Part shown: in pieces, positions 3,336 through 33,806 of the stretch | Position numbering within the stretch: position 1 is the stretch's first letter | How the letters are laid out: the number at the start of each line of letters is the position of its first letter | Source of the DNA: Candidatus Nomurabacteria bacterium | Lineage (GTDB): Bacteria > Patescibacteriota > Minisyncoccia > Phycocordibacterales > CAIZLB01 | DNA length: 64,000 nucleotides | Direction of reading: 5' to 3' | NCBI GenBank assembly: GCA_943356525.1 | Contig: CALRFG010000001.1 | Span: 7,278 to 71,277, forward strand | Notes under the pieces: model-generated | The model's database searches: none | Seen by the model: only the letters and a program-made list of their open reading frames with translations | What the model was told of the DNA's origin: nothing | Position numbers and translations under genes: made by a program

Positions 3336-6317
3336 CTAAATCTCTGAAATCTCAGGACTTATACGGCAAATAGTAGATGATGAAAGATTTACACCTGGAC
3401 CTCTACAATTAACAGTTATTTTATGATTTGTTTTTAGATTATCAACACTTACAAATCCAGAATTTGAACCGTTGATAGGATCTAAATTAATTATTGGATT
3501 TGTAGGTGTTAATATGTTTTCGCCGATAGATACGACATCACAACTTGTATCATTTGGCATATTTTCTATATCCCAACTTACAACACATTTTCCACCCTTA
3601 TCAACAATTACATTAGGTTCTTTATTTAAGATTATCGAAGCTGAGTTTTGGGATCCAATATCATCTATTGCAGGAATAATACATGTTGTATTAACCGTTC
3701 TAAGCGTATTTGAATCTCTACTTTTATCAATTATATTAACAGGTATGGTTTGCTTTGATGTTGTCTTATTTATTGTAAACGAATTAGTTATAATTTTTTG
3801 GTTATCTTTATAATATTCTATTGTCGCACCATTTAAAGGACTTGCTATCAATATCACATTTGACACCGAAGGGGAGTTATTGTCGGAAACTGAACAACTT
3901 AGAAACAATTTACATTCTTTACTGTCTTTTTCATTGCTGACAGTTTCATTTGTTGTTTTATTGAAGCAAACCATATTTTGGGAATTACACCCACACTCAA
4001 TTTCATCGGCAGGAGGAGTTTCTATATTATTGACACATTGACCTTCAGGGTTTTTTATATAGTTTGTATCAATATAGTCACCGTCCAATGTTTTTTTTCT
4101 TATTATGTTACCAAATTTAATATAATCACCTTCTAGGTTTGGACAAACTGAAGTTATTTCACCAGGACAAACTCCTGCACCTGCAACACATACTTCTTGT
4201 GAATATATTCTAAAAGTTGAGGTGTTACCCCGAGCTTGATTTTGTAACATTATATAAAACTTATGTTTTCCTGGGGTTGTAGGCATTTTATATGTACCAG
4301 CATTTATATTATAGTTACTACTTCTTTCATGACCTCCAGCATTATAATAACCATTACCCCACGCTGAGGAAGCCCATAAATATTTACCTGATTTACCTTG
4401 AACGTTAGTATTTGTAAAACCAGTTTGAGGATAGGTTTTATATGGACCTTTAATAACCTCTGGATGACTTTGAACGCCACCTATTGAACTTATAGCAGTC
4501 CAAAAAGAAGCAAGTCTAGGTAAAACTCGTGGCCCCCACGTATCACCAGAATAAAATAAAACATTAATCCATTGAATTGTTGTATATCTTACTGATCTGA
4601 AATTTCTTGAAGTTACCTGTTGCCAAATATGTGCATCGTATATACCATTTAGATTAAAATTCCACCAATCATCACTAGGACCAAATAGATTGTTATTAAA
4701 TCCAGCATTATTACAAGCAACATAAGATGCATTAACCTGTAAAGTAAAGTCTTCACCCGGTTGATATATTCTTACATCACTAGGTTGAGGTGAGATAAAA
4801 GAATTTAATTTAAAATTTTGGGAAGAGTTAGCTTGTGGGGCTAACTCTGTTGTAAAAGCCTCCACTTTTTGAGAGATTAAAAATAAAGGAGTTAGTGCAA
4901 TTAAAAATAGCAAAGTACTTTTAGGCACTTTTTTATTTATTTTTTTTCTGAAAAATATAATTATAATAAATATTATAGGTAATAATGAAAGTAGAATAAT
5001 ATATGTGATTCTTATAGAATATTCTCCTAAATAAGTATTTTCTAATTCTTTCTCTGAAGGTAGATTAGTTTCATATCTTGATAAAATATCACCTTCTTCA
5101 TCAACCATCTCAGCTTTTATAATAAAACCGCTTACTGTTTTTGATATATCAACCTCAATAGCAGTAGTACTTGCTGCCGATAAATTTATTTGTGTCTGAC
5201 CTTCGCCTATAATATTATTCTTTCTATCAAAAATAGATAATTTTATCATTGCGGTTTTATTCACAGCAGTATTTTGAGTGTTACTAGCATTTTCTGTTGA
5301 ATCTTTTTCTATTTGATCGTAAAAAAACTTAGCAACTTCCTCAGAAGACATACTTGATATATCAACACCTTCAGGTTCACTTGTATCAAAATCATCAGTC
5401 TGATCATTTACAGCATTAATATCAAAAAAATCTTCATTTGTTATATTTAAAGGAATTCCAGCATATTCAATATTAACTTTAATTTTTTCTCCCTTCTTCG
5501 CGTCCAAAGAAGATGTATTTATGTTTAATATTGTACCTATATTACCTTCTAAAATATATCTAAAATAGGAAGATGGTATATAGTATTCGAGATTTTCAAA
5601 TGTTAAAACCCCAGCATAGACGAGAGGATTTATATTTGTTGGTAATTTCAATCTATACTCCTTGTTAGAATCCAATTCAATATCATCTAGTATGATGGTT
5701 TCTAAGGGTTTATTATTCAAAGTTGTTCTATTGTATAATTCTATTTTAGGTTTAACAGTAAGTCCTTTAATACCTATCTTGTCTATTTTGAATTTGATAA
5801 AAATATTTCCATCTTTTTTTACTGTTGGACCTTGTTGAGGGAAAAAATTTTTTCCTTCGGCTTCAATATTAAAATTATTTAAAGTTAAATTTTTTTTATT
5901 TTTTTTACTTTTTATAATTATAGGTTTTTGAATCTGATTTAAAAAAGTTCCATCTTTTGAGTAAACTGTAACAATAAAATCTGCTTTTGAGTTTAATTCG
6001 GTATTTAAAATATGTTCAAAATTAAAAACCTTATTAGATTTTGATTCTAAATAAATATTTTTTCCATATTGGAAATCGCTTTCTATTATTTGATTATCTA
6101 AACTTGTGGATATAAAAGTTTGTATATAAATATCTGACTCTCTTGAGGTTGAATTATTAAATATTCTAACGGAACCTTTAATAATTTCTTTTTCATTGTA
6201 TTCTATTTTATCTATAAATAAATCATTTACATAAACCCCTTCATCTTGGGCTAGTATTGTATTTTTATTACTAAAAATACAAAAAATAAATATGGAGATT
6301 AAAAATATTTTTTTCAT
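3336..6317 (-). CDS. giant surface protein, paralog 1: signal peptide, N-domain, 2-TM hairpin, C-domain, then conserved C-terminal domain
   Basis: 993-aa ORF. Signal peptide MKKIFLISIFIFCIFSNKNTILA. Mid-protein TM (YIILLSLLPIIFIIIIFF), then RKKINKK, then a second signal-like hydrophobic segment (LLFLIALTPLFLISQKVEA). C-terminal ~90 aa (VDKGGKCVVSWDIENMP...ICRISPEISEI) is shared with the genes at 6375 and 8064. Confidence 0.8.
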   Translation of the reverse strand: MKKIFLISIFIFCIFSNKNTILAQDEGVYVNDLFIDKIEYNEKEIIKGSVRIFNNSTSRESDIYIQTFISTSLDNQIIESDFQYGKNIYLESKSNKVFNFEHILNTELNSKADFIVTVYSKDGTFLNQIQKPIIIKSKKNKKNLTLNNFNIEAEGKNFFPQQGPTVKKDGNIFIKFKIDKIGIKGLTVKPKIELYNRTTLNNKPLETIILDDIELDSNKEYRLKLPTNINPLVYAGVLTFENLEYYIPSSYFRYILEGNIGTILNINTSSLDAKKGEKIKVNIEYAGIPLNITNEDFFDINAVNDQTDDFDTSEPEGVDISSMSSEEVAKFFYDQIEKDSTENASNTQNTAVNKTAMIKLSIFDRKNNIIGEGQTQINLSAASTTAIEVDISKTVSGFIIKAEMVDEEGDILSRYETNLPSEKELENTYLGEYSIRITYIILLSLLPIIFIIIIFFRKKINKKVPKSTLLFLIALTPLFLISQKVEAFTTELAPQANSSQNFKLNSFISPQPSDVRIYQPGEDFTLQVNASYVACNNAGFNNNLFGPSDDWWNFNLNGIYDAHIWQQVTSRNFRSVRYTTIQWINVLFYSGDTWGPRVLPRLASFWTAISSIGGVQSHPEVIKGPYKTYPQTGFTNTNVQGKSGKYLWASSAWGNGYYNAGGHERSSNYNINAGTYKMPTTPGKHKFYIMLQNQARGNTSTFRIYSQEVCVAGAGVCPGEITSVCPNLEGDYIKFGNIIRKKTLDGDYIDTNYIKNPEGQCVNNIETPPADEIECGCNSQNMVCFNKTTNETVSNEKDSKECKLFLSCSVSDNNSPSVSNVILIASPLNGATIEYYKDNQKIITNSFTINKTTSKQTIPVNIIDKSRDSNTLRTVNTTCIIPAIDDIGSQNSASIILNKEPNVIVDKGGKCVVSWDIENMPNDTSCDVVSIGENILTPTNPIINLDPINGSNSGFVSVDNLKTNHKITVNCRGPGVNLSSSTICRISPEISEI

Positions 6318-6374: not shown

Positions 6375-7547
6375 TTATATTTCGTTAATTTCTGGGTTTA
6401 CACGACATACAGCAGACTCAGTCAGAGAAGGATTTAGGTTAACTCCTGCACAGGTTATACTAAACTTTGTATTTGACTGTATATCACTTTGGGTATATGA
6501 ACCTGTTGACGTACTGTTTACGGTAGCGTTAACTTTAATACCATCTCGTTTTAAAGTACACTCTGTGCCTGGTGGCATATTTTCTATTTTCCAAGACAAT
6601 TTACAGTCTCCACCTTTATCTAAGGTTACTAGGGGTTTTTTTGTTATTTTTATTGATGGTTTAGCTACCGGATCTTTTGGTTTGGTGATTGTTTCACTTG
6701 TATCTGCTTCACATTTAACAGTTTTTGATGTGTTATCAAAACTATCAGTCACAGTAACATCCATAGTCTGAAGTGACTTTGTATTTGGAATAGTGTATGT
6801 ATATGATGTTCCAGGATATTGTATTTTAGTATCTTTACCTGTACTGGTATACGTAATTGTTGCTATGTTCTGAGAAGGCGTTACTGTAAATTCAACATTT
6901 AAATTATTAATACTAGCATCACAGACTGCACTTAGACCGCACATAGGGGCGTTTGCGTCTCTTGTTTCCTCCTCACTGTTCCGTGTACCCACCCAATCTC
7001 TACCAACGCAGGCATAAGTTACGGGAGATAAACATTCACCATTTATCCCTTCTAATCCTTCAGGTATCTCTGTTTGTATTTCATTAATGTTTGAACATAA
7101 ATCTGGAATAGTTAGTACACAGTCACCGTTAACGTCAAGCTCATATCCTTCAGGTATCTCTGTTTGTATTTCATCAATATTTGGACATACATCGGAGACC
7201 TCTTCTTCAACGCAAAGACCTGCCCCTGTTACACAATATGTATGCTCAAAAAGTATATATGCTGAAGGTTTATAATATGTTAATTGTTTACCTTGTTCAG
7301 ATGTACCGTAGAGAGGGTTATAGTAACTTGAACAATACTCTCCATAACCAGCACTACTGGGGTCAGCATAACCCCCAGAACTCCCAGGACTCCAGAACCC
7401 ACAGGATGAAATAACAATAGGTCCGTTATAATATTCTCTAGGTTCATACGTATTCTCGACTGTGTTTCTGTATGCGTATATATATATATAGCATGTTTTC
7501 CAGGTATAGTTGATGCTTTGTACGGTTTTGTATATACACCAAATATA
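6375..7547 (-). pseudogene. paralog 2, C-terminal portion (frame 0), open stop-to-stop from 7547 with no start of its own; part of a frameshifted gene
   Basis: Hand translation upstream of the annotated GTG at 6992 continues in frame: ...SSCGFWSPGSSGGYADPSSAGYGEYCSSYYNPLYGTSEQGKQLTYYKPSAYILFEHTYCVTGAGLCVEEEVSDVCPNIDEIQTEIPEGYELDVNGDCVLTIPDLCSNINEIQTEIPEG...GTRNSEEE... This aligns with paralog 1 (RIYSQEVCVAGAGVCPGEITSVCPNLEGDY...). It ends with the shared CTD ...AVCRVNPEINEI. Confidence 0.6.
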
Positions 7548-7906
7548 TTACGCGTTACTTTAGTAGCGTTTTTAACATTTCTCCACCATACAACATCTGT
7601 TATGTAACCAAATACATTAAACGAGTATGCATTTTCTGTTTCATTTTTAACATAAAAATCAACAGTATACGTTTCATTATTACAATCAGATAGAGAAGTG
7701 AAGAAAGTTAGATTAAAAGCCTCGCCTGGTGAATAGTTTTTACCTAAACGGTAATCATAAGGTGAAGATACTGATGATATCCTAAATTCTGGAAAATCTG
7801 ATGATCTAACCGGATAAGCCTCAGCATTAACCCAAACATAACCTGACAAAAGCAACATTACAAACATTAATATTTTCTTATTTAAAAATAAAAACATTTT
7901 TTTCAT
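7280..7906 (-). pseudogene. paralog 2, N-terminal portion (frame 2): signal peptide plus start of C-domain; apparent frameshift joins it to the 6375..7547 frame
   Basis: 208-aa ORF MKKMFLFLNKKILMFVMLLLSGYVWVNAEA... Its residues ...YKASTIPGKHAIYIYTHTETQ align with paralog 1 ...YKMPTTPGKHKFYIMLQNQ. The homolog then continues in the other frame, so a +/-1 frameshift lies around 7400-7450. Confidence 0.6.
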
Positions 7907-11347: not shown

Positions 11348-11419
11348 AAATATACAATAAACAAAAACACCCTCTTTTACAAGGATGATTTTGTATTAAA
11401 AACTTTTTACAATCAAAGG

Positions 11420-12526: not shown

Positions 12527-12621
12527 TATGAGTATATTATAGCATATATGAAATATTTGTCAAGCTATATAAAACAAAAACCTTGGGGATTAACCCAAGG
12601 CCCAAAAGACGAATCTTTTGA

Positions 12622-13398: not shown

Positions 13399-13442
13399 AC
13401 TGTATATATTATATCATATATAACAATAATGTCAATGAAAAA

Positions 13443-17987: not shown

Positions 17988-20444
17988 ATGGTAAAAGTTT
18001 TTAGAAATTTTATTTATAAAATAGAGGATTTTATTATTTATATAATAAGCAAAATGATTAAATTTTTTAATTTAAATAAAAAGAATAAATCCTGGGTTAA
18101 AAAATTAGTAAGAAAAATTATTTTAGGAGTTATTGCTTTATTGATGTTTATTACCGCTCTTTTTTTATTGTGGTTTTCCAGCCTAAAAACACCTGATATA
18201 AACGTTTTTGATGACAAACTACTTGGACAATCAGCTAAGATATACGATAGAACAGGAAATGTTTTATTGTATGATTTAAGTCAAAAAGTAAGAAGATCTG
18301 TTATGCCAATTGATCAAATCTCTCCTTATATAGCACAGGCAACTATTGCCATAGAGGATAATGATTTTTATCAACATGGAGGTATAAAAATATCATCTCT
18401 TGTGCGTGCTGTTTTTGCAAACATTAGTGAGGGTGGTTACAGTCAAGGCGGTTCTACTATAACTCAACAAGTTGTTAAAAACTCTCTTTTGACAAGAGAT
18501 AAGACAATAGTTAGAAAAATTAAAGAAATATTTTTATCATTAAAACTTGAAAGGAATTTAACTAAGGATCAGATTTTAACACTTTATCTAAATAATTCTC
18601 CTTATGGTGGAAATATATATGGTGTTGAGGAAGCAACTCAATTATTTTTCAATAAAAAAGCAAATGATGTTACTTTAGCAGAGGCTGCTATTATTGCATC
18701 TTTACCAAAAGCACCTTCTACTTATAACCCTTATGTAGGCAAAAAAAATGCACTATTAGATAGGAAAAATCTTGTTCTTTCAAACATGTTTAAACTGAAA
18801 ATGATTACAGAGGAGCAGTACAACGAAGCAAAAGCAGAGGTTGTTGTATTTGAACCAAGAAATCTAGGTTCAATAAAAGCAGCACATTTTGTAATGTATT
18901 TAAGAGATCAGCTAGAAAAAAAATATGGTATAGAAAAATTATCTGAAGGTGGTTTTAAGGTTATTTCTACAATAGACTATGATATTCAAAAAAAAGGAGA
19001 GGAAATAGTTTTTGATTATATAAAAAATAATCAAAAAAGATTTGGTGCTGAAAATGGTTCTATGGTTGTTATAGATCCAAAAACAGGACAAATATTGGCC
19101 ATGATAGGTTCACGAGATTATTTTGATACAGAAATAGATGGAAATTTTAACATTGCGACAGCATATAGACAACCAGGTTCAGCTTTTAAACCTTTTGTGT
19201 TTGCAACGGGTTTTAATAAAGGTTTTTTACCTCAAACTGTATTGTTTGATACTTTAACCGAGTTTTCGTCTGAATGTACACCTAGTGGTATACCTAAATC
19301 AGCAGAAACTGTTTGTTATAAGCCTCAAAACTATGAGGGTGGTTTTAAGGGTCCTATGAGTATAAGAATGGCACTAGGTGCATCTAGAAACATACCTGCG
19401 GTTAAGATGATATATCTTGTTGGTGTCCAATCTGTTATAAACACCGCTAGGGCGTTGGGTATTTCCAATCTAGAGAATGCATCAAAGTATGGTTTATCGC
19501 TTGCACTTGGGTCTGGTGAAGTGTCTGTAATTGACATGACAAGTGCTTATGGGGTTTTTGCAAATGATGGTGTTAGAAACAACGTTACTGGTATAATTAA
19601 AATAGAAGATTCAAATGGCCAAGTTTTGGAGGAGTTTGAACCTGCACCTAAAAAGGTCCTGGAAGAGCAAACCGCTAGGTATATAAACGATATCTTGTCT
19701 GATGTGGTTGCGCGTAACAGTATATTTGTAAAATCTTATTTCAAAGATGATATAGTTGCCATGAAAACAGGTACAACAAACAACTCTCGTGATGCTTGGA
19801 CTATAGGTTATACACCAACAGTGGTTGTGGGTGCATGGATAGGAAACAACGACAATAGCCCTATGAGCCAAATTGCTTCAGCTTTGATAGTATCCCCTAT
19901 GTGGAAACAATACATGGATTATTTATTAACAAAAGTTAATAAAGAATCATTTATAAAGCCAGAGGAAATAAGTAGTGATGTTAAACCTTTTATGAAAGGG
20001 GTTTATCAAACAGCAGATGGTGTTGCTCACAGTGAGCTATACTGGATTGATAGAGATGATGTTACAGGCGCACAACCAAGAAATCCTGCTGCTGATCCAT
20101 TATTCTACAATTGGGAAAATTCTATATATAATGAATCACAGGAGTTTAGTGATGGAAACACTTCTTCATCAGGTTTAATGGTAAATATAATTGGTAGTAA
20201 AAAAAATTTATTAAAGGACTCTATATTAAGTGTGAGTGTTTCTGGTTATACAGATCAGACTACAAAAGTAGATTTCTTAATAAACGGAGTAAAGGTTGGA
20301 GATAGTACTACATCACCTTATAAATTTAACGTTAACTTAAATTTGTTAAAAAACATAAATCCAGAGAATGAAATAAAAATAGTGGAGTACAATAAAGATG
20401 ATGTTACTAAAGTTGCGGTAGATTATTTTACAATTCAAGAGTAA
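17988..20444 (+). CDS. class A penicillin-binding protein (bifunctional glycosyltransferase/transpeptidase, PBP1A-like)
   Basis: N-terminal TM. GT51 motifs EDNDFYQHGG and GGSTITQQVVKN. Transpeptidase SAFKPF (SxxK) and KTGT. Confidence 0.9.
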   Translation: MVKVFRNFIYKIEDFIIYIISKMIKFFNLNKKNKSWVKKLVRKIILGVIALLMFITALFLLWFSSLKTPDINVFDDKLLGQSAKIYDRTGNVLLYDLSQKVRRSVMPIDQISPYIAQATIAIEDNDFYQHGGIKISSLVRAVFANISEGGYSQGGSTITQQVVKNSLLTRDKTIVRKIKEIFLSLKLERNLTKDQILTLYLNNSPYGGNIYGVEEATQLFFNKKANDVTLAEAAIIASLPKAPSTYNPYVGKKNALLDRKNLVLSNMFKLKMITEEQYNEAKAEVVVFEPRNLGSIKAAHFVMYLRDQLEKKYGIEKLSEGGFKVISTIDYDIQKKGEEIVFDYIKNNQKRFGAENGSMVVIDPKTGQILAMIGSRDYFDTEIDGNFNIATAYRQPGSAFKPFVFATGFNKGFLPQTVLFDTLTEFSSECTPSGIPKSAETVCYKPQNYEGGFKGPMSIRMALGASRNIPAVKMIYLVGVQSVINTARALGISNLENASKYGLSLALGSGEVSVIDMTSAYGVFANDGVRNNVTGIIKIEDSNGQVLEEFEPAPKKVLEEQTARYINDILSDVVARNSIFVKSYFKDDIVAMKTGTTNNSRDAWTIGYTPTVVVGAWIGNNDNSPMSQIASALIVSPMWKQYMDYLLTKVNKESFIKPEEISSDVKPFMKGVYQTADGVAHSELYWIDRDDVTGAQPRNPAADPLFYNWENSIYNESQEFSDGNTSSSGLMVNIIGSKKNLLKDSILSVSVSGYTDQTTKVDFLINGVKVGDSTTSPYKFNVNLNLLKNINPENEIKIVEYNKDDVTKVAVDYFTIQE

Positions 20445-24775: not shown

Positions 24776-24824
24776 AACCTTCATAATAAAATATTTATTC
24801 AAATTCTAAAAATAAATAAAAAAT

Positions 24825-24859
24825 AAGGTCATTCTAGCAAAGAATGACCTTATTTTTTA
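24825..24859. terminator. bidirectional rho-independent terminator
   Basis: AAGGTCATTC-TAGCAAA-GAATGACCTT hairpin flanked by A-run and T-run, between convergent yidC and the 24871 gene. Confidence 0.6.
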
Positions 24860-24870
24860 TTTAATTATTA

Positions 24871-26190
24871 CTAGAGGTCGTATTTCCACAAAGTTAAAGT
24901 CTCTTTATCTTGAAATAACAGATATTTGTTTGTACTAGATATGTTCATTTTATATATATCTATAGGTACTATAACCTGATCTTGTAATGAGACAATAAGT
25001 CTAAAGCCCCCTGTTTCAGCATCAATCGACCATATATTATCACCAAAAGATATATTATTTTTATACCATGCGTCTGGATAAGGTGCTTGCTCTAGTCTTT
25101 GTGGTATACCACAGTATATTATTTTAGAATCAGAGCCCCAAACACATTTATCTACTATGGTGGCTTGATTTAAATACGTTGAATTTTTCGCTTTTATGTC
25201 ATATATGAATGTTTCCAAAGTGTTATTTAATATTTCATTGTATATAACCTTCTTGCCATCAGGTGACATAAGTGTGTTAAAACCGTATTTTTCACCCAAA
25301 ATATAAGTGTTTTTAGAGTTACCGTCTGGGTTAAGTGTGAATAAATAACCTTTAAAATAAGCCGAAGGTTTTGTTGTCAAAGCAACTACTGTTTTATTTA
25401 CGTACTGTGATAACCACTCTGATATAGTAGTATTTATTGTATTTATCCTAACAACACCATCTATATTAGAAACAACACCACCACCAGATTTGTTTATAAA
25501 ATAGAATATTTTTTTAATAGATCCTAAAAAAGATATATTATTTGCATCAATGTTTATATTTTTAACCTCAGCTTTATAAATAGTTGATGATGAAAACTCC
25601 TTTATTAGCTTCATGTATGCAGTAGAGATTGTCTCATTATCATTAGCTAAAGTTCTTATAATCAAAGAAGAACTATCTGCAAAAAATACCTCTTCAGCTC
25701 CAGGTGAGGTATAGTTAGAAATCTTTACAATATCTGTTGTAGAAGCTATATTTTCATATATATGACCTGTTTTACGATCCCAAAAGTAAATATATTCTTG
25801 ATTTTTTAATATTTTTTTATTTTTAATATCTTTTACAATATCCTTTGTTGATGTTGATTTATTTGTACTTGTTGATATAACCTCTATATCTTTATATACA
25901 AAATCAAAACCTGAAACAGGTTCATTCCATAGTTGTATAAGTCTTGGTTTTTCTGATGCTGTTTCTGTTGGATTTTCTACAACCTCTTCATTTGCAAATG
26001 TTTCAACGTTTGTAGATGTTGAAACTCTTGTTTGAAAAGGGGTTCTATTTCTATCTATATTTGTAACATCCCCACCATTTGTCTTTATTAGTGTTTTAGA
26101 TTTTTGAAAAAAACTATAACCAAAATATACACCTAAGCCTAATATTAGTATTGTTAAAGTAAAAATTATTTTTTTTATAGTATTTTTCAT
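24871..26190 (-). CDS. hypothetical membrane-anchored extracytoplasmic protein
   Basis: 439 aa with an N-terminal signal anchor. Downstream partner of the 3D-domain paralog. Confidence 0.5.
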   Translation of the reverse strand: MKNTIKKIIFTLTILILGLGVYFGYSFFQKSKTLIKTNGGDVTNIDRNRTPFQTRVSTSTNVETFANEEVVENPTETASEKPRLIQLWNEPVSGFDFVYKDIEVISTSTNKSTSTKDIVKDIKNKKILKNQEYIYFWDRKTGHIYENIASTTDIVKISNYTSPGAEEVFFADSSSLIIRTLANDNETISTAYMKLIKEFSSSTIYKAEVKNINIDANNISFLGSIKKIFYFINKSGGGVVSNIDGVVRINTINTTISEWLSQYVNKTVVALTTKPSAYFKGYLFTLNPDGNSKNTYILGEKYGFNTLMSPDGKKVIYNEILNNTLETFIYDIKAKNSTYLNQATIVDKCVWGSDSKIIYCGIPQRLEQAPYPDAWYKNNISFGDNIWSIDAETGGFRLIVSLQDQVIVPIDIYKMNISSTNKYLLFQDKETLTLWKYDL

Positions 26191-26215: not shown

Positions 26216-27472
26216 TTAACGATTTAATATTTGTGCTCTTTTTTGACCAAAATATATTGTCCATTGTCCAGCTGGTATATTTTTTAAGTATGATCCGCCC
26301 AATGTTCCATTTTCATCATAAATATCGACAGTATTATTAAAAATAACACCATTATAAACAGCCGCTGTTGCATCTTCATAGTAACCAATAGAAGTTCCGT
26401 TTATATAAACCTCTTGACCTGTCTGAGGTTTATATCTAGATATAAGATCAGGAGACAATGCAACAGAACCCTCTCTTAGAAGATTATTTGAGTTTCCTCT
26501 TCTTTGTGCTGTGTTTGTGTCTGTTATTTTGTCTTTGGTTGCACTGTATACAGTTACAACAAGTCTACCATCTGTTGATCTTTGTCCATTATTAAGACCT
26601 CTTACCCAGTTTTCTGCAGTCCTTTCATTCCAAGAACCTACAGTGTTATAAGCATCCACAATCGACCCACCCCCAGCAGCTCCTAAATACGGACTATTTG
26701 GTACACTTGGTCCATAAAGCCCTGGAACATTAACACTCTGCTGTAAACCTTCAACATTTGCAAAGCTTGTAGAATATGTACCCTCCTTCAATCCTTGGGC
26801 TGCTTTAGCTATACCCCCATCAATACTATTCTCAGTATCAAGTTGTCCTGGATTAAAGTTAAAAGCCACAAGTTGTTTGTTTACTGTATACAATATGGTA
26901 TATGACAGTAAGCCTAAAGCCAAAGCTATTAAACTATTTTGCAATCTCTTTTTAGCACCTCCTTTTATCTGACCAGTTGCCTCCTCTGTCATATATTGTA
27001 TACCTGAAACAGATATATTGATAACAGATAATATTATTATGATTGATATCAAAAGTGTAAACAACATTTTCAACAACCCCTCAGTCCCACTAGCCACTTT
27101 AATACAAGTTATCTTACCTCCTTCCTTGGTGTCTCTGTTTGGAACCTCAACAACACCAAGACTCACTGCCCCTGGAAAAGTCTTGTCTATACCAGAAAAA
27201 GGTTGATAAAGTTTCTTATTTACATAATCACAGTTTTTTGTAGTTGGAAATATTGTTGCAAGTATCGAACCTTCAGGTGCTGCCCAATCCACAAATTTAT
27301 CAGCAAACCCTTTTTCTTGAGTTGGGGTGGAGGCTTGTTTTGGTGCTGCGGCATCTAGCCTCATTTGACCTGGTACAGCTTGGGGAACTTGTGCCAAAAC
27401 ATCATCACCACCCAAAAGCAAAACAAAAATCAACACAAGTATTTTTACAAAATTGAATAAAGGTTTATCCAT
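26216..27472 (-). CDS. membrane protein, paralog A: conserved N-terminal module plus C-terminal 3D-like (MltA-type) domain
   Basis: 418 aa. The first 265 aa are identical to the 28071 gene except one residue. The C-terminus has LLREGSVALSPD...GQEVYINGTSIGYYEDATAAVYNGVIFNNTVDIYDENG, resembling the 3D domain of lytic transglycosylases and stationary-phase survival proteins. Confidence 0.6.
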   Translation of the reverse strand: MDKPLFNFVKILVLIFVLLLGGDDVLAQVPQAVPGQMRLDAAAPKQASTPTQEKGFADKFVDWAAPEGSILATIFPTTKNCDYVNKKLYQPFSGIDKTFPGAVSLGVVEVPNRDTKEGGKITCIKVASGTEGLLKMLFTLLISIIIILSVINISVSGIQYMTEEATGQIKGGAKKRLQNSLIALALGLLSYTILYTVNKQLVAFNFNPGQLDTENSIDGGIAKAAQGLKEGTYSTSFANVEGLQQSVNVPGLYGPSVPNSPYLGAAGGGSIVDAYNTVGSWNERTAENWVRGLNNGQRSTDGRLVVTVYSATKDKITDTNTAQRRGNSNNLLREGSVALSPDLISRYKPQTGQEVYINGTSIGYYEDATAAVYNGVIFNNTVDIYDENGTLGGSYLKNIPAGQWTIYFGQKRAQILNR

Positions 27473-27494
27473 GTGTTGATTATATCAGATTATT
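26678..27494. repeat. ~817-bp near-perfect direct repeat, copy 1 (5' part of the gene plus promoter)
   Basis: Identical to 28557..29373, as shown by the identical overlapping ORFs 27018..27206 and 28897..29085, 1879 bp apart. Ends 22 nt upstream of the ATG. Confidence 0.85.
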
Positions 27495-28059
27495 TCAATT
27501 GATTGTATTGTTTTGTTATTTCTTGTTTTTTTGCTGATGAAAGATTTTCATACTCACCACTTAATTCTACATACCATTGAAATATTAAATAAACATTTGC
27601 TTTAGTTTTTTTAATGTCACTGCTTGTATTTATAATTTTTATCAATTCTGATGAGTTTTTTGATATAAAAGGTCTCCAAGCTTCCAACAAAACCTCATTA
27701 TCTGCCGATTCAGATAAAGATAAAGCTTGACTTAATAGCTCAGGGTTTTTTGTTATCTCCCAGTTGAATAAAATTTTATTTAGATTGTTATATTCAACAT
27801 CTTCAACGCCGTCCTTGTAACTTACAACATTGACATCTAAATTATTTTTTAACAATGTTGATGTATCATCTAATTTTTTATCACCCAATGTTTCATTTTT
27901 TCCAAACACTACCCTATCAGATATAACTGTTTGTGTACTTGTTGATACCTCTATGTTTAACTGTGTTTGTTTTTTATTATTTACGTAAAAATAAGAAAAA
28001 ATTATTAAAAACGATATTAATATTATTATGATTATTCTTATAAATTTTGTATTTAACAT
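27490..28059 (-). CDS. hypothetical membrane-anchored protein between the two paralogs (candidate immunity/partner protein)
   Basis: 189 aa with an N-terminal TM anchor. Directly downstream of paralog B. Confidence 0.45.
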   Translation of the reverse strand: MLNTKFIRIIIIILISFLIIFSYFYVNNKKQTQLNIEVSTSTQTVISDRVVFGKNETLGDKKLDDTSTLLKNNLDVNVVSYKDGVEDVEYNNLNKILFNWEITKNPELLSQALSLSESADNEVLLEAWRPFISKNSSELIKIINTSSDIKKTKANVYLIFQWYVELSGEYENLSSAKKQEITKQYNQLK

Positions 28060-28070
28060 ATTTTTATTTA

Positions 28071-29351
28071 TTATTTTCCAACAATTATTGAACCTTTACC
28101 CAAAGCTGTATAGGTTTGTATTGCTCTCCAAAACCTTTGCTGTGTTGCCAAATCTCCGACAATACCTATACAACCAATTGTACCAGGTCCACCTCCATCT
28201 GGGTGTATTCTTAGTTCTGTTCTTTGTGTATTTGTCCTCGGATCAAGTTGTATATCGTTTAGGTCACATGAATATCCAAAACCACTTACAAACATTGTTG
28301 GTTTAGATGCTATATCTGTTCTTATACGGCAATTTGTTATTGTATAAGTACCAAATGGTAAATATCCCTCACCCCCACCACCTGATCTAAAAGGAAAAAC
28401 TTCACCTGATATGTTTAGAACACCACCACTTGCTCTAGCTTGCATTAAGGTTGGATTTTCTATTGAATTTATTTTTGCGTATGCTATTCCTGACTGCATA
28501 CTTGACATCGGTAATCCATAATTTCCATAAGCATCCACAATCGACCCACCCCCAGCACCTCCTAAATACGGACTATTTGGTACACTTGGTCCATAAAGCC
28601 CTGGAACATTAACACTCTGCTGTAAACCTTCAACATTTGCAAAGCTTGTAGAATATGTACCCTCCTTCAATCCTTGGGCTGCTTTAGCTATACCCCCATC
28701 AATACTATTCTCAGTATCAAGTTGTCCTGGATTAAAGTTAAAAGCCACAAGTTGTTTGTTTACTGTATACAATATGGTATATGACAGTAAGCCTAAAGCC
28801 AAAGCTATTAAACTATTTTGCAATCTCTTTTTAGCACCTCCTTTTATCTGACCAGTTGCCTCCTCTGTCATATATTGTATACCTGAAACAGATATATTGA
28901 TAACAGATAATATTATTATGATTGATATCAAAAGTGTAAACAACATTTTCAACAACCCCTCAGTCCCACTAGCCACTTTAATACAAGTTATCTTACCTCC
29001 TTCCTTGGTGTCTCTGTTTGGAACCTCAACAACACCAAGACTCACTGCCCCTGGAAAAGTCTTGTCTATACCAGAAAAAGGTTGATAAAGTTTCTTATTT
29101 ACATAATCACAGTTTTTTGTAGTTGGAAATATTGTTGCAAGTATCGAACCTTCAGGTGCTGCCCAATCCACAAATTTATCAGCAAACCCTTTTTCTTGAG
29201 TTGGGGTGGAGGCTTGTTTTGGTGCTGCGGCATCTAGCCTCATTTGACCTGGTACAGCTTGGGGAACTTGTGCCAAAACATCATCACCACCCAAAAGCAA
29301 AACAAAAATCAACACAAGTATTTTTACAAAATTGAATAAAGGTTTATCCAT
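28071..29351 (-). CDS. membrane protein, paralog B: conserved N-terminal module plus C-terminal L,D-transpeptidase/Tlde1-like (H...GC) domain
   Basis: 426 aa. The N-terminal 265 aa match the 26216 gene. The C-terminus has ELRIHPDGGGPGTIGCIGIVGD, a His...Gly-Cys pattern reminiscent of YkuD/DUF2778 catalytic motifs. Confidence 0.55.
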   Translation of the reverse strand: MDKPLFNFVKILVLIFVLLLGGDDVLAQVPQAVPGQMRLDAAAPKQASTPTQEKGFADKFVDWAAPEGSILATIFPTTKNCDYVNKKLYQPFSGIDKTFPGAVSLGVVEVPNRDTKEGGKITCIKVASGTEGLLKMLFTLLISIIIILSVINISVSGIQYMTEEATGQIKGGAKKRLQNSLIALALGLLSYTILYTVNKQLVAFNFNPGQLDTENSIDGGIAKAAQGLKEGTYSTSFANVEGLQQSVNVPGLYGPSVPNSPYLGGAGGGSIVDAYGNYGLPMSSMQSGIAYAKINSIENPTLMQARASGGVLNISGEVFPFRSGGGGEGYLPFGTYTITNCRIRTDIASKPTMFVSGFGYSCDLNDIQLDPRTNTQRTELRIHPDGGGPGTIGCIGIVGDLATQQRFWRAIQTYTALGKGSIIVGK

Positions 29352-29373
29352 GTGTTGATTATATCAGATTATT
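28557..29373. repeat. ~817-bp near-perfect direct repeat, copy 2
   Basis: See 26678..27494. Confidence 0.85.
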
Positions 29374-30382
29374 TATTACTTGTTTCTATTATATAAGTAA
29401 CACTTCTTGTTTGAAGTATTGAATTTTCATTTTTAATTTCTACTGACATTCTTGACCTGTCATTATTTGTTTTCTTTTTAAAAGAAAGTTCATTCAGGTT
29501 TGTATTAATTTTTACATCATTTATATACCATGTATATAATCCAGAAAAAACCGTTGAAAAAGAATAATATAAAGGATAAGAAACTATAGTTGCTTCTAAC
29601 TTATTCATGTAGTAAGTATTTTTTATTGTTTTATTAAACAAAACTCCAAGTAATGGTGATTTTTCATAAGTTATAATTTCACTAGGTAGGGCTCTTACTT
29701 TTAACAAAGCTTCATTATTGAAAGAGTTTTTTTGTGTATTTTTATCGTTAAAACTTTTTATACTTGAGAGTGTAACTTTAAATAAAGGTTCTATCCCCAA
29801 GATGTCATCCTCATATACAAATGAAGAATATCCAACCCCTGATTGATTTCCAAGGACTGTATCATCTTTTTTCCATGTGTAGTTGTTATACTTATTTGTT
29901 AAAGGATTTTCTTGATCAAGATTTATTGCGTTTAAAACAAGTGTTGCCTCTGGTGTAAAAAATGATTTACCTCTATAAAAAGGGGGTGTATATGTTCTAG
30001 ATTCCCAGACTATTATGATTTTTTTTGGATCAAATTCAAAAGTTTTTTCTATAATCAGACCATTTTCTGTAGTTATTTTTAGATCTATCTTAGTTTTTTC
30101 AGATAAAACAAAACTAGCTTTGTTTATACCTACCCCATCTTTAAAAACCACTCCGTTAATTTTCCATATAAAACTCGTGTTTTGTATAGGTGTACCATAC
30201 ATCTGAGCCTCAAGTTCTACAGTATCACCTATGTTGGGTCTAGTAGGTGTTATGTTGTAATAAACTTTTTCTTTTAGTTCTGGTATGTCACCAGGTTTGA
30301 TCAACTCGGCAAAGGTTTTTGTTGAAACACTCAAGTATAAAACAAATATAGTTATTAAAAATATTTTAGAGAAAAAACTCAT
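29369..30382 (-). CDS. hypothetical secreted protein (T4SS locus)
   Basis: 337 aa with a signal peptide. TATAAT 7 nt upstream of the ATG. Confidence 0.5.
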   Translation of the reverse strand: MSFFSKIFLITIFVLYLSVSTKTFAELIKPGDIPELKEKVYYNITPTRPNIGDTVELEAQMYGTPIQNTSFIWKINGVVFKDGVGINKASFVLSEKTKIDLKITTENGLIIEKTFEFDPKKIIIVWESRTYTPPFYRGKSFFTPEATLVLNAINLDQENPLTNKYNNYTWKKDDTVLGNQSGVGYSSFVYEDDILGIEPLFKVTLSSIKSFNDKNTQKNSFNNEALLKVRALPSEIITYEKSPLLGVLFNKTIKNTYYMNKLEATIVSYPLYYSFSTVFSGLYTWYINDVKINTNLNELSFKKKTNNDRSRMSVEIKNENSILQTRSVTYIIETSNK

Positions 30383-30401
30383 GTTATAATTATATCAGAT
30401 T

Positions 30402-30827
30402 TTAATTTGAATAGTAGGAATAGATTACATTTAACGTCATAAAAGGTAAAAAACTTATAAAAGGAATATATTCAAGTATAGACGTTGCACCCATAGATCC
30501 TATTTTTTTCATATTAAACTTCACACCAGAGAAGAAAAACCAAGGTATAAATATCACATTGTATAGTATTGATATAAGTATACTTATTGCAGGAATTAAA
30601 CTAAGTAGATCAAGTATTATAGAGACAGCCAACATACATATAAAATTTAATGTTATTGGTTTTTTTGTGATATTTTTAGCTACATTTTTAGCATTAGTGA
30701 TCTGATTTACAGGGTTCTTGTCTCCACCTATTTTTTCACCAACCCTTTCGATTTTACTAGGACTATTTAATTCAGAAGTATCCCTCCTCTCCACTCTACT
30801 TGGCCTCTCACCTAATTGTGTAGCCAT
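30402..30827 (-). CDS. hypothetical small membrane protein overlapping the virB4 3' end
   Basis: 141 aa with two or three TM segments. Overlaps the upstream gene by 16 nt. Confidence 0.45.
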   Translation of the reverse strand: MATQLGERPSRVERRDTSELNSPSKIERVGEKIGGDKNPVNQITNAKNVAKNITKKPITLNFICMLAVSIILDLLSLIPAISILISILYNVIFIPWFFFSGVKFNMKKIGSMGATSILEYIPFISFLPFMTLNVIYSYYSN

Positions 30828-32629
30828 GTTTTTTGATTATCTTTATTGGCATTTAATATCTCTTCTGGATTTGATGTGATGATTTTATTTTCAGTCTCTG
30901 ATGCGACAACTTTCAGTGCAACATGTTTTTGTCCTGCAAAAAATATTCCCTCCCCGACACCTGACTCTAATAATAAATATTTCTCTTCATTTGTAAGGTT
31001 AAATGTCTTTTGAACCATATCTATCGATGTTGGTGACTGTTTTAACATAAATTGCATAGATGAGTTTGTGATAATAGGCAATCCATAAGGAGATCTCAAA
31101 AAGTCTTCTACATCTTGAGTTATTGTTGATATACCTAGATAGTATTTTCTACCTCTTTTAGCTAAGCCAAACAAGAAAGATGCTGTATCTTCTGATTTCA
31201 TCATCCACCACGCTTCATCAACAACCAAAAGTCTCTTTTTTATTTCTTTACGTACTAAACTCCAAATATGATGCATAACTATATACATAGCTATAGGTTT
31301 AAGCTCATCTTCCATATCACGAAGAGAAAATACCACTAATTTTTTATTTATATCCAAGTTTGAAGGTCTGTTTATAAATCCTGACCATGTTCCTTTTGTA
31401 TATTTTGTAAGTCTCTGTACCAATGACTCCCCTCCTTCAAGTCCAGCGAGTACCAACTCAAAGTCTGACATCAAAGGTGGTTCTATAGCTGAAAAATTGG
31501 CTTCAGGGGTGATATCTTTAAGTGCATAGGTTTCAGATATAGCTCTATCTATAATAGAATCCTCCTCAGGTGTTAAACCTCCAAGCATAAGACGGAAAAG
31601 TCCAACCAGGTTTACTATATGTGATCGTAAAACATCAGACGGAGACTCATCCTCATGTGGCATAGGTAAGTCAAAAGGGTTGATATGATTTTCTGATGTT
31701 AAAGATATATTAAAATATCTACCACCTAGAGTCTCTGTCATCTTCTCATACTCTCTTTCAGGGTCAAGAACTATAACATCAACATCAAACATAAGAGATC
31801 TTAATATCTCAAGTTTAGTGGCATAAGATTTTCCAGAACCAGATTTTGCAAAAGTAACAGAGTTATAGTTTTCAAGAGAAAATCTATCAAATAACACCAA
31901 ACTGTTATTGTGACGGTTCAACCCATATAAAATACCTCTACCTTCTGTAAGGTCAAAAGAAATAAATGGAAATATACTTGATAGTGGTGATGAGTTTAGT
32001 TTTGAATGAACATCTAATTCATCAGTAGATACTGGTATAGTTGTCCTAAAACCTTGCTCTTGTTGAAACAATGCAGGTTTGATAAAAACAAGAGAAGCCT
32101 CAAGTGTTGATTTTATTTCTGACTCTACCCTGTTGAGTTCTTCCTCACTGTCACCGTATATAGATATATAAATCCCAACATCAAATATTTTTTCTTGTGC
32201 TTGTTGTAGGTTGTCACGCAACTGCTCTAGGTTTTGATATGAGGCATCAAGCTGTGGATCACGAACTAAACCCTTTTCCTCTCTGTCGTTGATTTGACTT
32301 TGTACCTCAGCAACTTTTTTCTTAAATTCATTTAACACAGTTGATGTGTCTATGGGTTGTATAAATATCGATATATCAAAGGCTTTATCTAGATTAATGA
32401 TTGGTGAAAACCAAGAGTCTGATAAAAACTTTGGATAAGACATTACAAAAAAACTTCTAACTAACTTCTCACCTAGGTTTAAAGTCTTAGGACTTATTTT
32501 TAGAGCGGAAGGTGCAATAATATCTTTAAGTTCAAGTACTGCCGATCTATAAATATCTTTCGGTAATATAGACGTTATTTGTTTTATTTGGTTGTTATTA
32601 TTTGTTTTTAAAAAATCTAGAAATCCCAT
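30812..32629 (-). CDS. virB4: VirB4/TrbE/CagE-family type IV secretion ATPase
   Basis: Walker A FAKSGSGKSY. DPEREY (aligned to the VirB4 DPKGEY). Walker B LLVVDEAWWM. C-terminal RKYYLGISTITQDVEDF. Confidence 0.8.
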   Translation of the reverse strand: MGFLDFLKTNNNNQIKQITSILPKDIYRSAVLELKDIIAPSALKISPKTLNLGEKLVRSFFVMSYPKFLSDSWFSPIINLDKAFDISIFIQPIDTSTVLNEFKKKVAEVQSQINDREEKGLVRDPQLDASYQNLEQLRDNLQQAQEKIFDVGIYISIYGDSEEELNRVESEIKSTLEASLVFIKPALFQQEQGFRTTIPVSTDELDVHSKLNSSPLSSIFPFISFDLTEGRGILYGLNRHNNSLVLFDRFSLENYNSVTFAKSGSGKSYATKLEILRSLMFDVDVIVLDPEREYEKMTETLGGRYFNISLTSENHINPFDLPMPHEDESPSDVLRSHIVNLVGLFRLMLGGLTPEEDSIIDRAISETYALKDITPEANFSAIEPPLMSDFELVLAGLEGGESLVQRLTKYTKGTWSGFINRPSNLDINKKLVVFSLRDMEDELKPIAMYIVMHHIWSLVRKEIKKRLLVVDEAWWMMKSEDTASFLFGLAKRGRKYYLGISTITQDVEDFLRSPYGLPIITNSSMQFMLKQSPTSIDMVQKTFNLTNEEKYLLLESGVGEGIFFAGQKHVALKVVASETENKIITSNPEEILNANKDNQKTWLHN

Positions 32630-32638
32630 ATGTATATA

Positions 32639-33262
32639 TTACATCTTTATTGGTTTTTCTGCATCTCCTGGATTAAATATTCTATAAAATAATTCAACTA
32701 ACTCTTCACTACCAAGACGAGCTATCTTTACACCACAACGCGCTAAGCCTTGCTCCACTACAGATATCCTCTGTTCTATTTGATTTTTTATTTCCTCGAA
32801 GTCATCATTCTTACTTTTTTGATTTTCAAATTCATCTTTCTTTTTAAACATTCCTGTTATACTTTTTGTTGCATTTGATATGGGTGCATATGGAACAACT
32901 ATAAAAAAACTTTTAGTCATTATATTTGACCCTTCTGTTAATCCTTTTATAAACATAATATATTCACTAATCTGAACTTTCATCAAATCACTTGTTTGAG
33001 CCCTAAGCCTATCCTCTAACAGCGCTACATAAGGTCTTATATCAAGTTTTCTTGATTGTATATAAGTTTGAACTGTAAAATCTAATGAGTTAAGGAAATT
33101 TTGAAATTGATAAATAACAGATTCTTGTTCTTCTGTTGACTTTAATGCAAAGTTAATTGATGTTGCCAAAACAACAGCTCTCATTGAGCCGTCCTTCAAT
33201 ATCATAATACCTTCACGTATTTCATTGATTGGTACAAAATCTTGTGCAGGGTTAGTCTTCAT
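32639..33262 (-). CDS. hypothetical soluble protein of the T4SS locus
   Basis: 207 aa. The annotated ATG overlaps the 3' end of tRNA-His; the alternative Met (MILKDGSM, ~33205) may be the real start. Confidence 0.45.
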   Translation of the reverse strand: MKTNPAQDFVPINEIREGIMILKDGSMRAVVLATSINFALKSTEEQESVIYQFQNFLNSLDFTVQTYIQSRKLDIRPYVALLEDRLRAQTSDLMKVQISEYIMFIKGLTEGSNIMTKSFFIVVPYAPISNATKSITGMFKKKDEFENQKSKNDDFEEIKNQIEQRISVVEQGLARCGVKIARLGSEELVELFYRIFNPGDAEKPIKM

Positions 33263-33335
33263 GGGCGGCTAGAGAGAATCGAACTCTCGACTCAGGATCC
33301 ACAAACCTGGGTTTTACCACTAAACTATAGTCGCC
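33262..33335 (-). tRNA. tRNA-His (GTG)
   Basis: Cloverleaf folds. Extra 5' G-1 pairs with discriminator C73. Anticodon loop TTGTGGA. T-arm GAGAG-TTCGATT-CTCTC. One A-C mismatch in the acceptor stem. Confidence 0.75.
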
Positions 33336-33380: not shown

Positions 33381-33806
33381 TCACTGTTCTTTTTTTGTTG
33401 GATATACACTTTTGTTTACGTCCAAACTCCAAGCCAGATCTTTTAGTTTACTTTGTGACAAAGATGGTGCTAGGAATGAGTCAGCTACACTTGTATCTTG
33501 TACTTTCTCTTCGGCCGTAACAGGTTTATCTATTTTTTTCCATATATATAACTTTGATTTTGTCATATATGAGAAACCGGCAGCTAAAACATCTATAAAA
33601 CTTTTATTATTTATTTTAACAAAAGCTAAAGATCCTGCTAATGCCCAAAGTATAAACATGAGTATAATACCAGGAAAAAAACCAAATACTTTATATATAA
33701 TATATGTACCACCAATACCGCCGAGTATATATATAAATTGCTTAAATGTTAAAGGTCCTATGATTTTACTTTCAAACTCTATAAACTGTGGTACTTGATA
33801 TCTCAT
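33381..33806 (-). CDS. small two-TM membrane protein, VirB3/PrgI-like (putative T4SS component)
   Basis: 141 aa with two hydrophobic helices near the N-terminus (IYILGGIGGTYIIYKVFGFFPGIILMFILWALAG). Sits in the T4SS gene neighbourhood. Confidence 0.4.
   Translation of the reverse strand: MRYQVPQFIEFESKIIGPLTFKQFIYILGGIGGTYIIYKVFGFFPGIILMFILWALAGSLAFVKINNKSFIDVLAAGFSYMTKSKLYIWKKIDKPVTAEEKVQDTSVADSFLAPSLSQSKLKDLAWSLDVNKSVYPTKKEQ

Follow-up and report, generated by a model that had tools for sequence, protein, structure and literature searches.

A near-identical pair of VirB2-like pilin modules with exchangeable, putatively wall-directed heads in a Patescibacteria type IV secretion locus

Type IV secretion systems (T4SSs) of Patescibacteria often lie beside dnaA, are kin to the conjugation machinery of monoderms, usually come without a relaxase and are accompanied by VirB2-like pilin genes (PMC12102498); in the sole genetically tractable Patescibacterium both the T4SS and its pilin genes are essential, and the role of the system has been called ‘completely unknown’ (PMC11665869). 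Here we analyze a 64-kb stretch of a Candidatus Nomurabacteria contig (CALRFG010000001.1; the whole stretch is referred to hereafter as the window) and a pair of its genes, A and B, whose products share a near-identical N-terminal half, assigned below to the VirB2-like pilins, and end in unrelated C-terminal domains (“heads”) of apparently wall-directed type. The pair would represent two modular VirB2-like pilins of the chromosomal, origin-proximal T4SS of a Parcubacteria-type bacterium (candidate phyla radiation, CPR/Patescibacteria).

The locus matches the published dnaA-proximal T4SSs of Patescibacteria (PMC12102498), and its closest counterparts are the arrays of VirB2-like pilins described from them (Wang et al, 2023, PMC10633639; Quinonero-Coronel et al, 2025, PMC12102498), which likewise place PF18895-type modules near virB4, virB3 and virB6 in a chromosomal, relaxase-free system, with several pilin genes in tandem or one non-pilin gene apart. 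The published arrays consist of small, divergent pilins (mean identity 25%, maximum 54% within an array; PMC12102498), whereas the two modules here are 99.6-100% identical and each is fused to a wall-directed head of ~145 aa; as published arrays are reported to reach at most 54%, the homogenization of the pair described below is unusual for this system.

A second point of reference is VirB1, whose monoderm homologues are membrane-anchored and carry extracellular hydrolase domains that typically cleave both glycan and peptide (PMC12857230). Like A and B, the VirB1-like hydrolases PrgK of pCF10, TraG of pIP501, CwlT of ICEBs1, TcpG and Orf14 of Tn916 combine a T4SS operon, a membrane anchor and extracellular wall domains, and the head that replaces that of B in some relatives is NlpC/P60, the superfamily of several of these enzymes. 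They are anchored by a single transmembrane helix, in contrast to the two-helix pilin module and the division of two putative activities between separate paralogues seen here, and their domains belong to the SLT, muramidase, CHAP and LytM classes, to which the window heads are non-homologous, making the analogy a functional one only.

The gene pair and its pilin module

Both open reading frames (ORFs) lie where the earlier note on this DNA had placed them. B occupies the first of two positions (slot 1) and A the second (slot 2), and the features of the pair are as follows.

28071..29351, minus strand: gene B (slot 1), 426 aa; an ORF whose domain layout, from sequence and fold evidence, is Sec signal peptide, Cys-containing extracellular segment, VirB2-like pilin hairpin, Gly/Ser/Pro-rich linker and YkuD/Tlde1-like head
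26216..27472, minus strand: gene A (slot 2), 418 aa; N-terminal module and linker as in B, head a double-psi beta-barrel (DPBB; MltA/expansin-like)
28527..29374, minus strand: repeat copy 1, 848 nt; B codons 1-275 plus 23 nt upstream
26648..27495, minus strand: repeat copy 2, 848 nt; A codons 1-275 plus 23 nt upstream, with the sole mismatch at 26679
26798..27280, minus strand: pilin core of A (residues 65-225), with conserved Cys81 and Cys123; the identical core of B is at 28677-29159
26648..26797, minus strand: linker of A (residues 226-275), ~50 residues rich in G/S/V/P; the repeat stops at its last residue (..GSIVDAY)
28527-28676, minus strand: linker of B

Base-by-base comparison of the two genes confirms a near-identical 5′ repeat, although the figures given earlier (817 bp, residues 1-265 and 22 nt of upstream sequence) were low: positions 26648-27495 correspond to 28527-29374 at an offset of 1879 nt over 848 nt, comprising residues 1-275 and 23 nt upstream. 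The one mismatch (26679/28558) falls in codon 265, GCT/GGT, and exchanges Ala for Gly. The 23 nt upstream take in the entire 17-nt intergenic spacer together with the final sense codon and stop of the upstream gene. Past the repeat edge (26647) the nucleotide match between A and B drops abruptly to background, and the C-terminal domains share no profile similarity (hhalign probability 2.4%). This is the largest repeat in the window, with no other near its size.

An exact 848-nt repeat is longer than the reads and k-mers behind metagenome contigs such as this one, and a collapsed or chimeric repeat could feign identical 5′ halves; many related contigs do break here, with L005, L010, L013, L015 and L016 beginning or stopping at or within pilin-head genes. 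Three independent assemblies of this population nevertheless agree. The B protein (P0003) is found identical on 3-4 independent contigs, and the pair recurs in L004, a 175-kb scaffold from a different sample with 2 differences from the window across 21 kb. The L004 repeat is perfect, copy A there having Gly265 (P0002), and this change is one of the two differences. The short contigs L005 (a k141 contig with the upstream gene, B and the 189-aa gene described below) and L006, from further assemblies, keep the same arrangement. Misassembly is very unlikely because four other distinct genomes, from other studies, have equivalent repeats of their own (99.2-100%) that differ in sequence from this one; moreover, three diverged pairs (78-80%) were assembled normally, the N-terminal module always stands in both slots of relatives, and both ORFs are intact. 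We therefore regard an assembly artefact as highly improbable. Exact internal repeats do break short-read assemblies, and such pairs are therefore probably under-represented among metagenome-assembled genomes.

Hydropathy and sequence resolve the constant half into a Sec signal peptide (residues 1-27), low-complexity sequence, a segment with two conserved cysteines, a two-helix hairpin (TM1 ~131-158, basic loop TEEATGQIKGGAKKR, TM2 ~177-198; TM, transmembrane) and the linker. By the positive-inside rule, the N-terminal segment and everything beyond TM2 are predicted to be extracytoplasmic and the basic loop cytoplasmic. The signal peptide and hairpin had been recognized in the earlier note, which missed what they make up, namely a VirB2-like T4SS pilin of the PF18895 superfamily. 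A and B themselves give no match to PF18895 (T4SS_pilin) in a Pfam scan at E≤1; the family is matched by 29/55 close homologues (best E 5e-7), and a core profile searched against 1.84 billion representative proteins at E≤1e-3 retrieved 3615 relatives. Among 92 long relatives checked, 77 are PF18895-positive (best 5e-17) and 5 match TrbC/VirB2. Judged by these profiles, membership of A and B in the VirB2/PF18895 superfamily appears to be transitive rather than direct.

The traits of a VirB2-type pilin are present in the form of a signal peptide, a pair of hydrophobic helices with a short basic loop between them, and a T4SS locus with PrgI-like, TraC-like and VirB4 genes upstream. Size departs from the type: mature VirB2-type pilins are ~70-120 aa and mature A and B ~390 aa, the extra length lying in an N-terminal extension of ~100 aa and in ~200 aa of linker and head. 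The core profile detects no VirB2-like protein other than A and B in the 64-kb window. A pilin module that displays a globular module is familiar from the modular type IV pilins PilB and PilC of Streptococcus sanguinis, which belong to another superfamily and are adhesive, not wall-hydrolytic.

Long extensions are common in the wider pilin family, where 92/136 new representatives have at least 120 residues beyond the hairpin. The enzyme domains recognized in these extensions (SLT in 7, NlpC/P60 in 4, VanY in 3, YkuD in 3, M15 in 2, and M23, Tlde1, lysozyme-like and CHAP in 1 each) are all wall-directed. This census makes the union of pilin and wall enzyme a recurrent architecture rather than a local oddity.

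Scans of genomes and metagenomes with the core alignment and narrow peptide patterns gave 5 and 7 loci, and the comparative sample stands at ~15 loci. Within single genomes of this sample, the aligned nucleotide tracts of the two N-terminal modules are as follows.

Window: 848 nt, 99.9% identical
L001: 742 nt, 99.7% identical
L003: 627 nt, 99.2% identical
L009: 703 nt, 100% identical
L011: 526 nt, 99.2% identical
L007: 542 nt, 78% identical
L008: 466 nt, 80% identical
L014: 615 nt, 78% identical

Near-identical paralogue tracts (526-848 nt, 99.2-100%) are thus present in 5 distinct genomes and diverged N-terminal modules in 3. At the protein level, the pilin cores of seven genomes (those above except L014) are 100% identical within the window, L001, L003, L009 and L011, 95% within L007 and 79% within L008, compared with a mean of 61% (range 53-72%) between genomes; in 7/7 genomes the two paralogues resemble one another more than either resembles an orthologue. 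Heads of the same type are 56-73% identical between genomes and flanking orthologues 55-67%. The two-slot arrangement must predate the split of these lineages, as it is shared by genomes so diverged in their flanking genes, and a single recent duplication is rejected on account of two-slot synteny and diverged heads common to genomes with that degree of flanking divergence. The comparison indicates that the pilin modules have been repeatedly homogenized by gene conversion limited to one module and ending in the linker. The earlier note had offered very recent duplication or ongoing gene conversion; the latter has strong comparative support, unlike a single recent duplication. The locus is an unusually clean natural case of domain-restricted concerted evolution beside freely exchangeable heads.

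In L007, the slot-2 gene is split into ORFs of 79 and 334 aa and the homologue of the 439-aa gene that follows slot 2 into ORFs of 262 and 173 aa (10516-11792, 11800-13078). Either sequencing-error frameshifts or a decaying locus could account for these split ORFs; the N-terminal modules of L007 are among the diverged ones (78% at the nucleotide level).

Exchangeable heads and the partner gene

The heads and the gene that separates B from A are located as follows.

28074..28526, minus strand: head B (residues 276-426), YkuD/Tlde1-like fold
28203-28205 and 28170-28172, minus strand: candidate catalytic residues of B, His383 and Cys394 respectively, in motif RIHPDGGGPGTIGCIG (alignment invariants)
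26219..26647, minus strand: head A (residues 276-418), DPBB fold
27490..28059, minus strand: 189-aa protein between B and A with an N-terminal membrane anchor; candidate inhibitor or immunity partner of head B

The AlphaFold2 model of head B (predicted local distance difference test score, pLDDT, 87.2) retrieves YkuD-fold structures as all of its top 10 Foldseek matches in the PDB, among them DpaA (probability 0.97), LdtMt1/2 and Tlde1a (probability 0.87), with weak E-values (≥1.2e-2) and a TM-score of ~0.46. In an alignment of 65 sequences the motif R-I-H-P-D-G...G-T-x-G-C-I-G contains invariant His108, Thr116, Gly118 and Cys119 (head numbering). The L,D-transpeptidase/Tlde1-type assignment previously proposed for copy B therefore holds at the level of the fold, with its His and Gly-Cys invariant in the 65 homologues. 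Pfam scores for head B alone stay below both gathering cut-offs (Tlde1_dom, PF10908, 16.5 bits, E 0.012, cut-off 30.1; YkuD, PF03734, 13.6 bits, cut-off 23.4). Across the family of 65, Tlde1_dom is matched by 39 members at E≤1 (best 4.8e-5), YkuD by 7 and DUF5675 by 34. A PDB sequence-profile search with head B matched only the PG_binding domains of its homologues. Outside the CPR these homologues are mainly from Myxococcota and are fused to PG_binding_1 and PG_binding_3, which ties head B independently to the cell wall. We infer that head B is a Cys/His peptidase of the YkuD/Tlde1 type acting on peptide stems.

In Myxococcota and Deltaproteobacteria the head B family (P0066-P0111) forms an unannotated, catalytic-looking domain of ~220-260-aa proteins with PG_binding_1 and PG_binding_3. 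With many members matching Tlde1_dom or DUF5675 weakly, the family looks like an under-described YkuD-like branch.

Tlde1a itself, an effector of the Salmonella type VI secretion system (T6SS), carries the motif H121...S128-H129-G130-C131, and the Tlde1 gene is accompanied by one for its cognate immunity protein (PMC9638812). Head B resembles the Tlde1/Tldi1 pair (PMC9638812) in its altered L,D-transpeptidase fold, its compact His...(S/T)-x-Gly-Cys motif (His-to-Cys spacing 10 in Tlde1a and 11 in head B) and the small enzyme-specific gene beside it. It differs in that no T6SS is present, Pfam matches are sub-threshold, the domain is fused to a pilin and its candidate partner has no detectable similarity; the position matching Tlde1a H129 varies across the head B family, giving a variant motif.

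Head A is assigned at fold level as an MltA/expansin-like DPBB, in keeping with the 3D-like, MltA-type domain proposed for copy A in the earlier note. Asp residues at head positions 26, 43, 92, 108 and 111 are invariant in the homologue alignment, and the stretch ‘EDATAAV...VDIYDE’ is one that we take to resemble the Asp motifs of MltA and 3D domains. Head A and its homologues give no Pfam match to DPBB, 3D or MltA even at E≤10. Within the MltA/3D-domain/YuiC/expansin family, MltA has two domains and head A one, and a sequence-profile match between head A and these proteins is lacking; PDB sequence-profile searches returned no match for head A, nor for the further head D introduced below. Head A may act as an enzyme, as MltA does, or may bind or loosen the wall without catalysis in the manner of the expansins. 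In the Pfam and NCBIfam scans of A, B and their neighbours, matches to A and B were sub-threshold only.

The expectation that further C-terminal variants would be found on the same module was borne out in other genomes. At least four head types occur on one N-terminal module: A (DPBB), B (YkuD/Tlde1-like), C, which is NlpC/P60 (Pfam match in 5 members, E down to 6.6e-5), and D, which is Cys-rich and whose motifs may be RlpA-like. Comparison of all four head types by hhalign revealed no relationship (all probabilities ≤2.4%), and the proposal that A and D are divergent forms of one domain is unsupported at sequence level by this method. Slot 1, which follows a 337-aa gene, carries B or C; slot 2, which precedes the 439-aa gene, carries A or D. 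All four combinations are found.

B/A: this window
B/D: L001, L003, L008, L011
C/D: L007, L014
C/A: L009, L015

Wherever the fold is assigned, two-gene loci pair a head of the peptide-cutting type with a DPBB head. Single-gene loci also exist: the metagenome contigs L017, L018 and L019 have a lone pilin-head gene with a type-A head, flanked by the 337-aa and 439-aa genes, and lack the slot-1 gene, a state that may be ancestral or a loss. In L021 (3-1883), a pilin gene with a divergent type-B head (P0039, 40% identical) is preceded by a homologue of the 189-aa gene; apparently this genome has a B-like head in slot 2 or two B-type genes.

The 189-aa ORF begins 11 nt past the stop codon of B with no promoter box of its own, and its product has a transmembrane helix at the N-terminus and, towards the C-terminus, a conserved region of ~105 residues, with no match in Pfam, NCBIfam, PADLOC or PDB sequences. 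A homologue directly follows the slot-1 B gene in 7/7 loci (window, L001, L003, L008, L011, L020 and L022, these being the slot-1 type-B loci with downstream sequence available) and the slot-1 NlpC/P60 gene in 0/4 (L007, L009, L014 and L015; Fisher p ~0.003). B thus travels together with the 189-aa gene as a cassette of two genes. We consider the 189-aa protein a candidate inhibitor or immunity protein for head B, since such a protein, guarding a monoderm against a wall-active enzyme, would be expected to be specific to the head, anchored in the membrane and extracytoplasmic; a chaperone or targeting factor is a possible alternative.

This co-occurrence, together with the exchange of heads, bears on a different explanation of the locus, in which A and B are polymorphic antibacterial or anti-host effectors with a pilin-like delivery module, toxin heads acting against the wall of a host or competitor, diversification by cassette exchange and the 189-aa protein as immunity. 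At least four unrelated heads are joined at a sharp boundary to a single constant module, every combination of the two slots is found among the genomes, many kinds of wall hydrolase appear in the wider family, and the nearest relatives of head B are the Tlde1 T6SS effectors with their cognate immunity gene (PMC9638812), matched here by the strict tracking of head B by the 189-aa gene; the T4SSs of CPR epibionts are, in addition, suspected of effector delivery (PMC11665869). The likeness to polymorphic toxins (CDI/CdiA-CT, where CDI is contact-dependent inhibition, Rhs and LXG/WXG) extends to the constant N-terminal module, the sharply bounded and exchangeable C-terminal domain, the variation of heads among strains and, for B, the linked gene.

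The label of polymorphic toxins, which the earlier note had applied, fits the constant module and exchangeable heads, but a partner accompanies only B (heads A, C and D have no head-specific downstream gene in related loci, leaving three of the four heads without an immunity candidate), and no orphan or silent head cassettes are present in the window or related loci; A and B are both full length and have their own promoter boxes. Also unlike polymorphic toxins, the heads are all wall enzymes, forming a complementary peptidase and DPBB set at fixed syntenic positions of a core operon, on a T4SS pilin module that is homogenized between two full-length paralogues. With its pairing of peptide-cutting and DPBB heads, the locus is closer in appearance to a set of VirB1-type enzymes than to an arsenal of toxins. 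For A and B, which the earlier note had suggested to be secreted effectors, classical T4SS translocation is unlikely because they are Sec substrates anchored by two membrane helices rather than soluble T4SS substrates. No coupling protein was recognized among the scanned neighbour genes. The effector explanation retains weight because head exchange and the dedicated partner of B point rather to a target that is foreign, or to an activity that is dangerous; we consider it unlikely, but worth keeping in view.

The T4SS operon and its transcription

The pair had been described as adjacent to a T4SS locus. It sits, rather, inside the operon, as the conserved synteny and the core genes upstream make clear, and its neighbours include the following.

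29369..30382, minus strand: 337-aa secreted protein directly upstream of slot 1, a component of the T4SS locus
30812-32629, minus strand: P-loop part of VirB4, 605 aa (Pfam)
32639-33262, minus strand: TraC-like N-terminal part of VirB4, ~207 aa (Pfam)
33263-33334, minus strand: tRNA-His (tRNA scan), between the PrgI-like gene and the TraC-like ORF
33381-33806, minus strand: PrgI/VirB3-like gene (Pfam)
24871..26190, minus strand: 439-aa membrane-anchored protein directly downstream of slot 2, conserved

One flank of the pair holds dnaN, dnaA, rnpA and yidC, which gives a chromosomal context. The other holds, on the strand of the pair, a UvrD helicase, KsgA and several unannotatable proteins (one of 997 aa), followed by the PrgI/VirB3-like gene. 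The gene order (a VirB6-sized protein, PrgI, TraC-like and VirB4, 141 aa, 337 aa, slot 1, slot 2, 439 aa, yidC, rnpA, dnaA) is kept in every related contig retrieved. Orthologues of the 337-aa protein are 55-66% identical and unchanged in position in all related loci. The 439-aa gene follows slot 2 with any head type and is therefore not head-specific. The split of VirB4 into parts of 188-207 and 604-605 aa is common to all related loci, and we therefore treat it as a feature of the lineage, not a frameshift.

This synteny is difficult to reconcile with a simple role of A and B in housekeeping wall remodelling during growth and division, in which an L,D-carboxy- or transpeptidase and an MltA-like enzyme would use the hairpin as a mere anchor, the T4SS location would be incidental and the identity of the N-terminal halves a neutral by-product. 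The organism does make peptidoglycan, as the class A penicillin-binding protein at 17988-20444 attests (Pfam Transgly and Transpeptidase), in other bacteria YkuD enzymes and MltA serve ordinary wall maturation, and gene conversion between tandem paralogues requires no selection. The pair nevertheless keeps to the T4SS operon in every relative, and the homology of its anchor to T4SS pilins sets it apart from a generic transmembrane segment; the exchange of unrelated heads (B versus NlpC/P60) between lineages is unexpected for a conserved role, as is a head-specific partner gene. A housekeeping function is, on this evidence, improbable.

Promoter-like elements accompany the genes of the pair and the 337-aa gene.

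27479..27487, minus strand: extended -10 box TGATATAAT, ending 6 nt before the ATG of A
29358-29366 and 30389-30397, minus strand: identical boxes before B and before the 337-aa gene, respectively

The sequence TGATATAAT is a perfect extended -10 box within the 23 nt upstream of both A and B, and the earlier description of the repeat as including a promoter is plausible, with the box placed for leaderless transcription. Across the window (G+C ~30%), 8/16 TGNTATAAT sites end 6-9 nt ahead of the start codon of a large ORF (10903-10911, 12536-12544, 13408-13416, 27479-27487, 29358-29366, 30389-30397, 47778-47786 and 53842-53850), where ~0.03 would be expected by chance on a rough estimate, and no Shine-Dalgarno sequences are visible. 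This suggests that leaderless or near-leaderless transcription is widespread in this organism. A generic sigma-70 scan was uninformative, finding fewer sites than in shuffled sequence.

Several further features of the window were observed. The tRNA-His gene at 33263-33334, within the T4SS operon, abuts the predicted start of the TraC-like ORF, and relatives have a gap of similar size there. Between the convergent yidC and 439-aa genes, a near-perfect hairpin of 20 bp that has T-runs on each strand (24815-24861) looks like a bidirectional intrinsic terminator ending the T4SS operon. Two short direct repeats lie outside the pair: 6300-6368 versus 7889-7957 (69 nt, 93%), in which genes 3336..6317 and 7280..7906 share their start and the region upstream of it as a near-identical 5′ leader, and 7946-8055 versus 10932-11041 (110 nt, 95%).

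Function and meaning of the pair

We lean towards the reading that A and B are pilin-tethered, wall-breaching enzymes of the T4SS and a functional counterpart of VirB1. Four considerations argue for it: the position in the core operon, the Sec signal peptides, the complementary heads, and the report that S. epibionticum cannot do without the peptidase and lysozyme homologues that closely follow virB4 (PMC12102498). Each protein would be exported by Sec and held in the membrane by its pilin hairpin with both ends outside, presenting its head on a flexible linker of ~50 residues. Head B would cut peptide stems, while head A would cleave or loosen glycan strands, and jointly they could supply the activities that monoderm T4SSs take from a multi-domain VirB1-like hydrolase (PrgK, TraG, CwlT). 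The pilin module may place the heads where the T4SS, or a pilus-like structure, crosses a wall: that of the producer and, in an epibiont, probably that of the host too. Recurrent gene conversion holds the pilin modules of the two paralogues identical, perhaps because the same assembly machinery must handle both, and heads are swapped between lineages at the linker boundary. The 189-aa protein, presumably co-transcribed with B, would act as its dedicated partner, most likely an inhibitor protecting the wall of the producer.

Several points weigh against this proposal. What is observed is how the proteins are built, their folds and conserved residues, the synteny of the locus, the concerted evolution of the modules and the association of B with the 189-aa gene; from these we infer pilus incorporation or polymerization, enzymatic activity and the target wall, and likewise the topology and the inhibitor role. 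DPBB proteins include non-catalytic binders such as expansins and kiwellins, and head A may bind rather than cut. The pairing of a peptidase with a glycan-directed head holds for part of the family, the fold of head D being unassigned, and the pair is not obligatory, as L017-L019 hold type A alone. The dedicated partner of B, finally, resembles an effector-immunity pair and so favours the effector explanation.

A bolder form of the tethered-enzyme proposal would see the pilins as an enzyme-display scaffold: in this lineage the subunits would polymerize or cluster at the T4SS, heads facing outwards, into a wall-cutting conduit that bores through host peptidoglycan, with heads exchanged to suit the wall chemistry of the host, B held in check on the producer by a membrane-anchored immunity protein and gene conversion preserving co-assembly. 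We put this forward tentatively, as less likely than not.

Arrays of T4SS pilins in Patescibacteria, T4SS hydrolases, Tlde1-like enzymes with immunity proteins, head swapping and gene conversion between paralogues are each already known. The literature searched makes no mention of fusions between VirB2-like pilins and wall-directed heads, and three aspects of the locus appear to be undescribed there: the fusion itself, the module-restricted concerted evolution of a pilin pair, and the strict cassette of B and the 189-aa gene. The 189-aa protein may represent a new family of inhibitors or immunity proteins for Tlde1-like enzymes.

Few VirB1 homologues adjoin virB4 in Patescibacteria genomes (PMC12102498), and pilin-head fusions may account for this scarcity of stand-alone enzymes. 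That the only detectable VirB2-like proteins of the locus are fused to wall-directed heads leads to a testable idea, namely that the pilins bring wall-breaching chemistry to the interface between epibiont and host, and the pair offers a lead to the function of an essential and unexplained T4SS machine.

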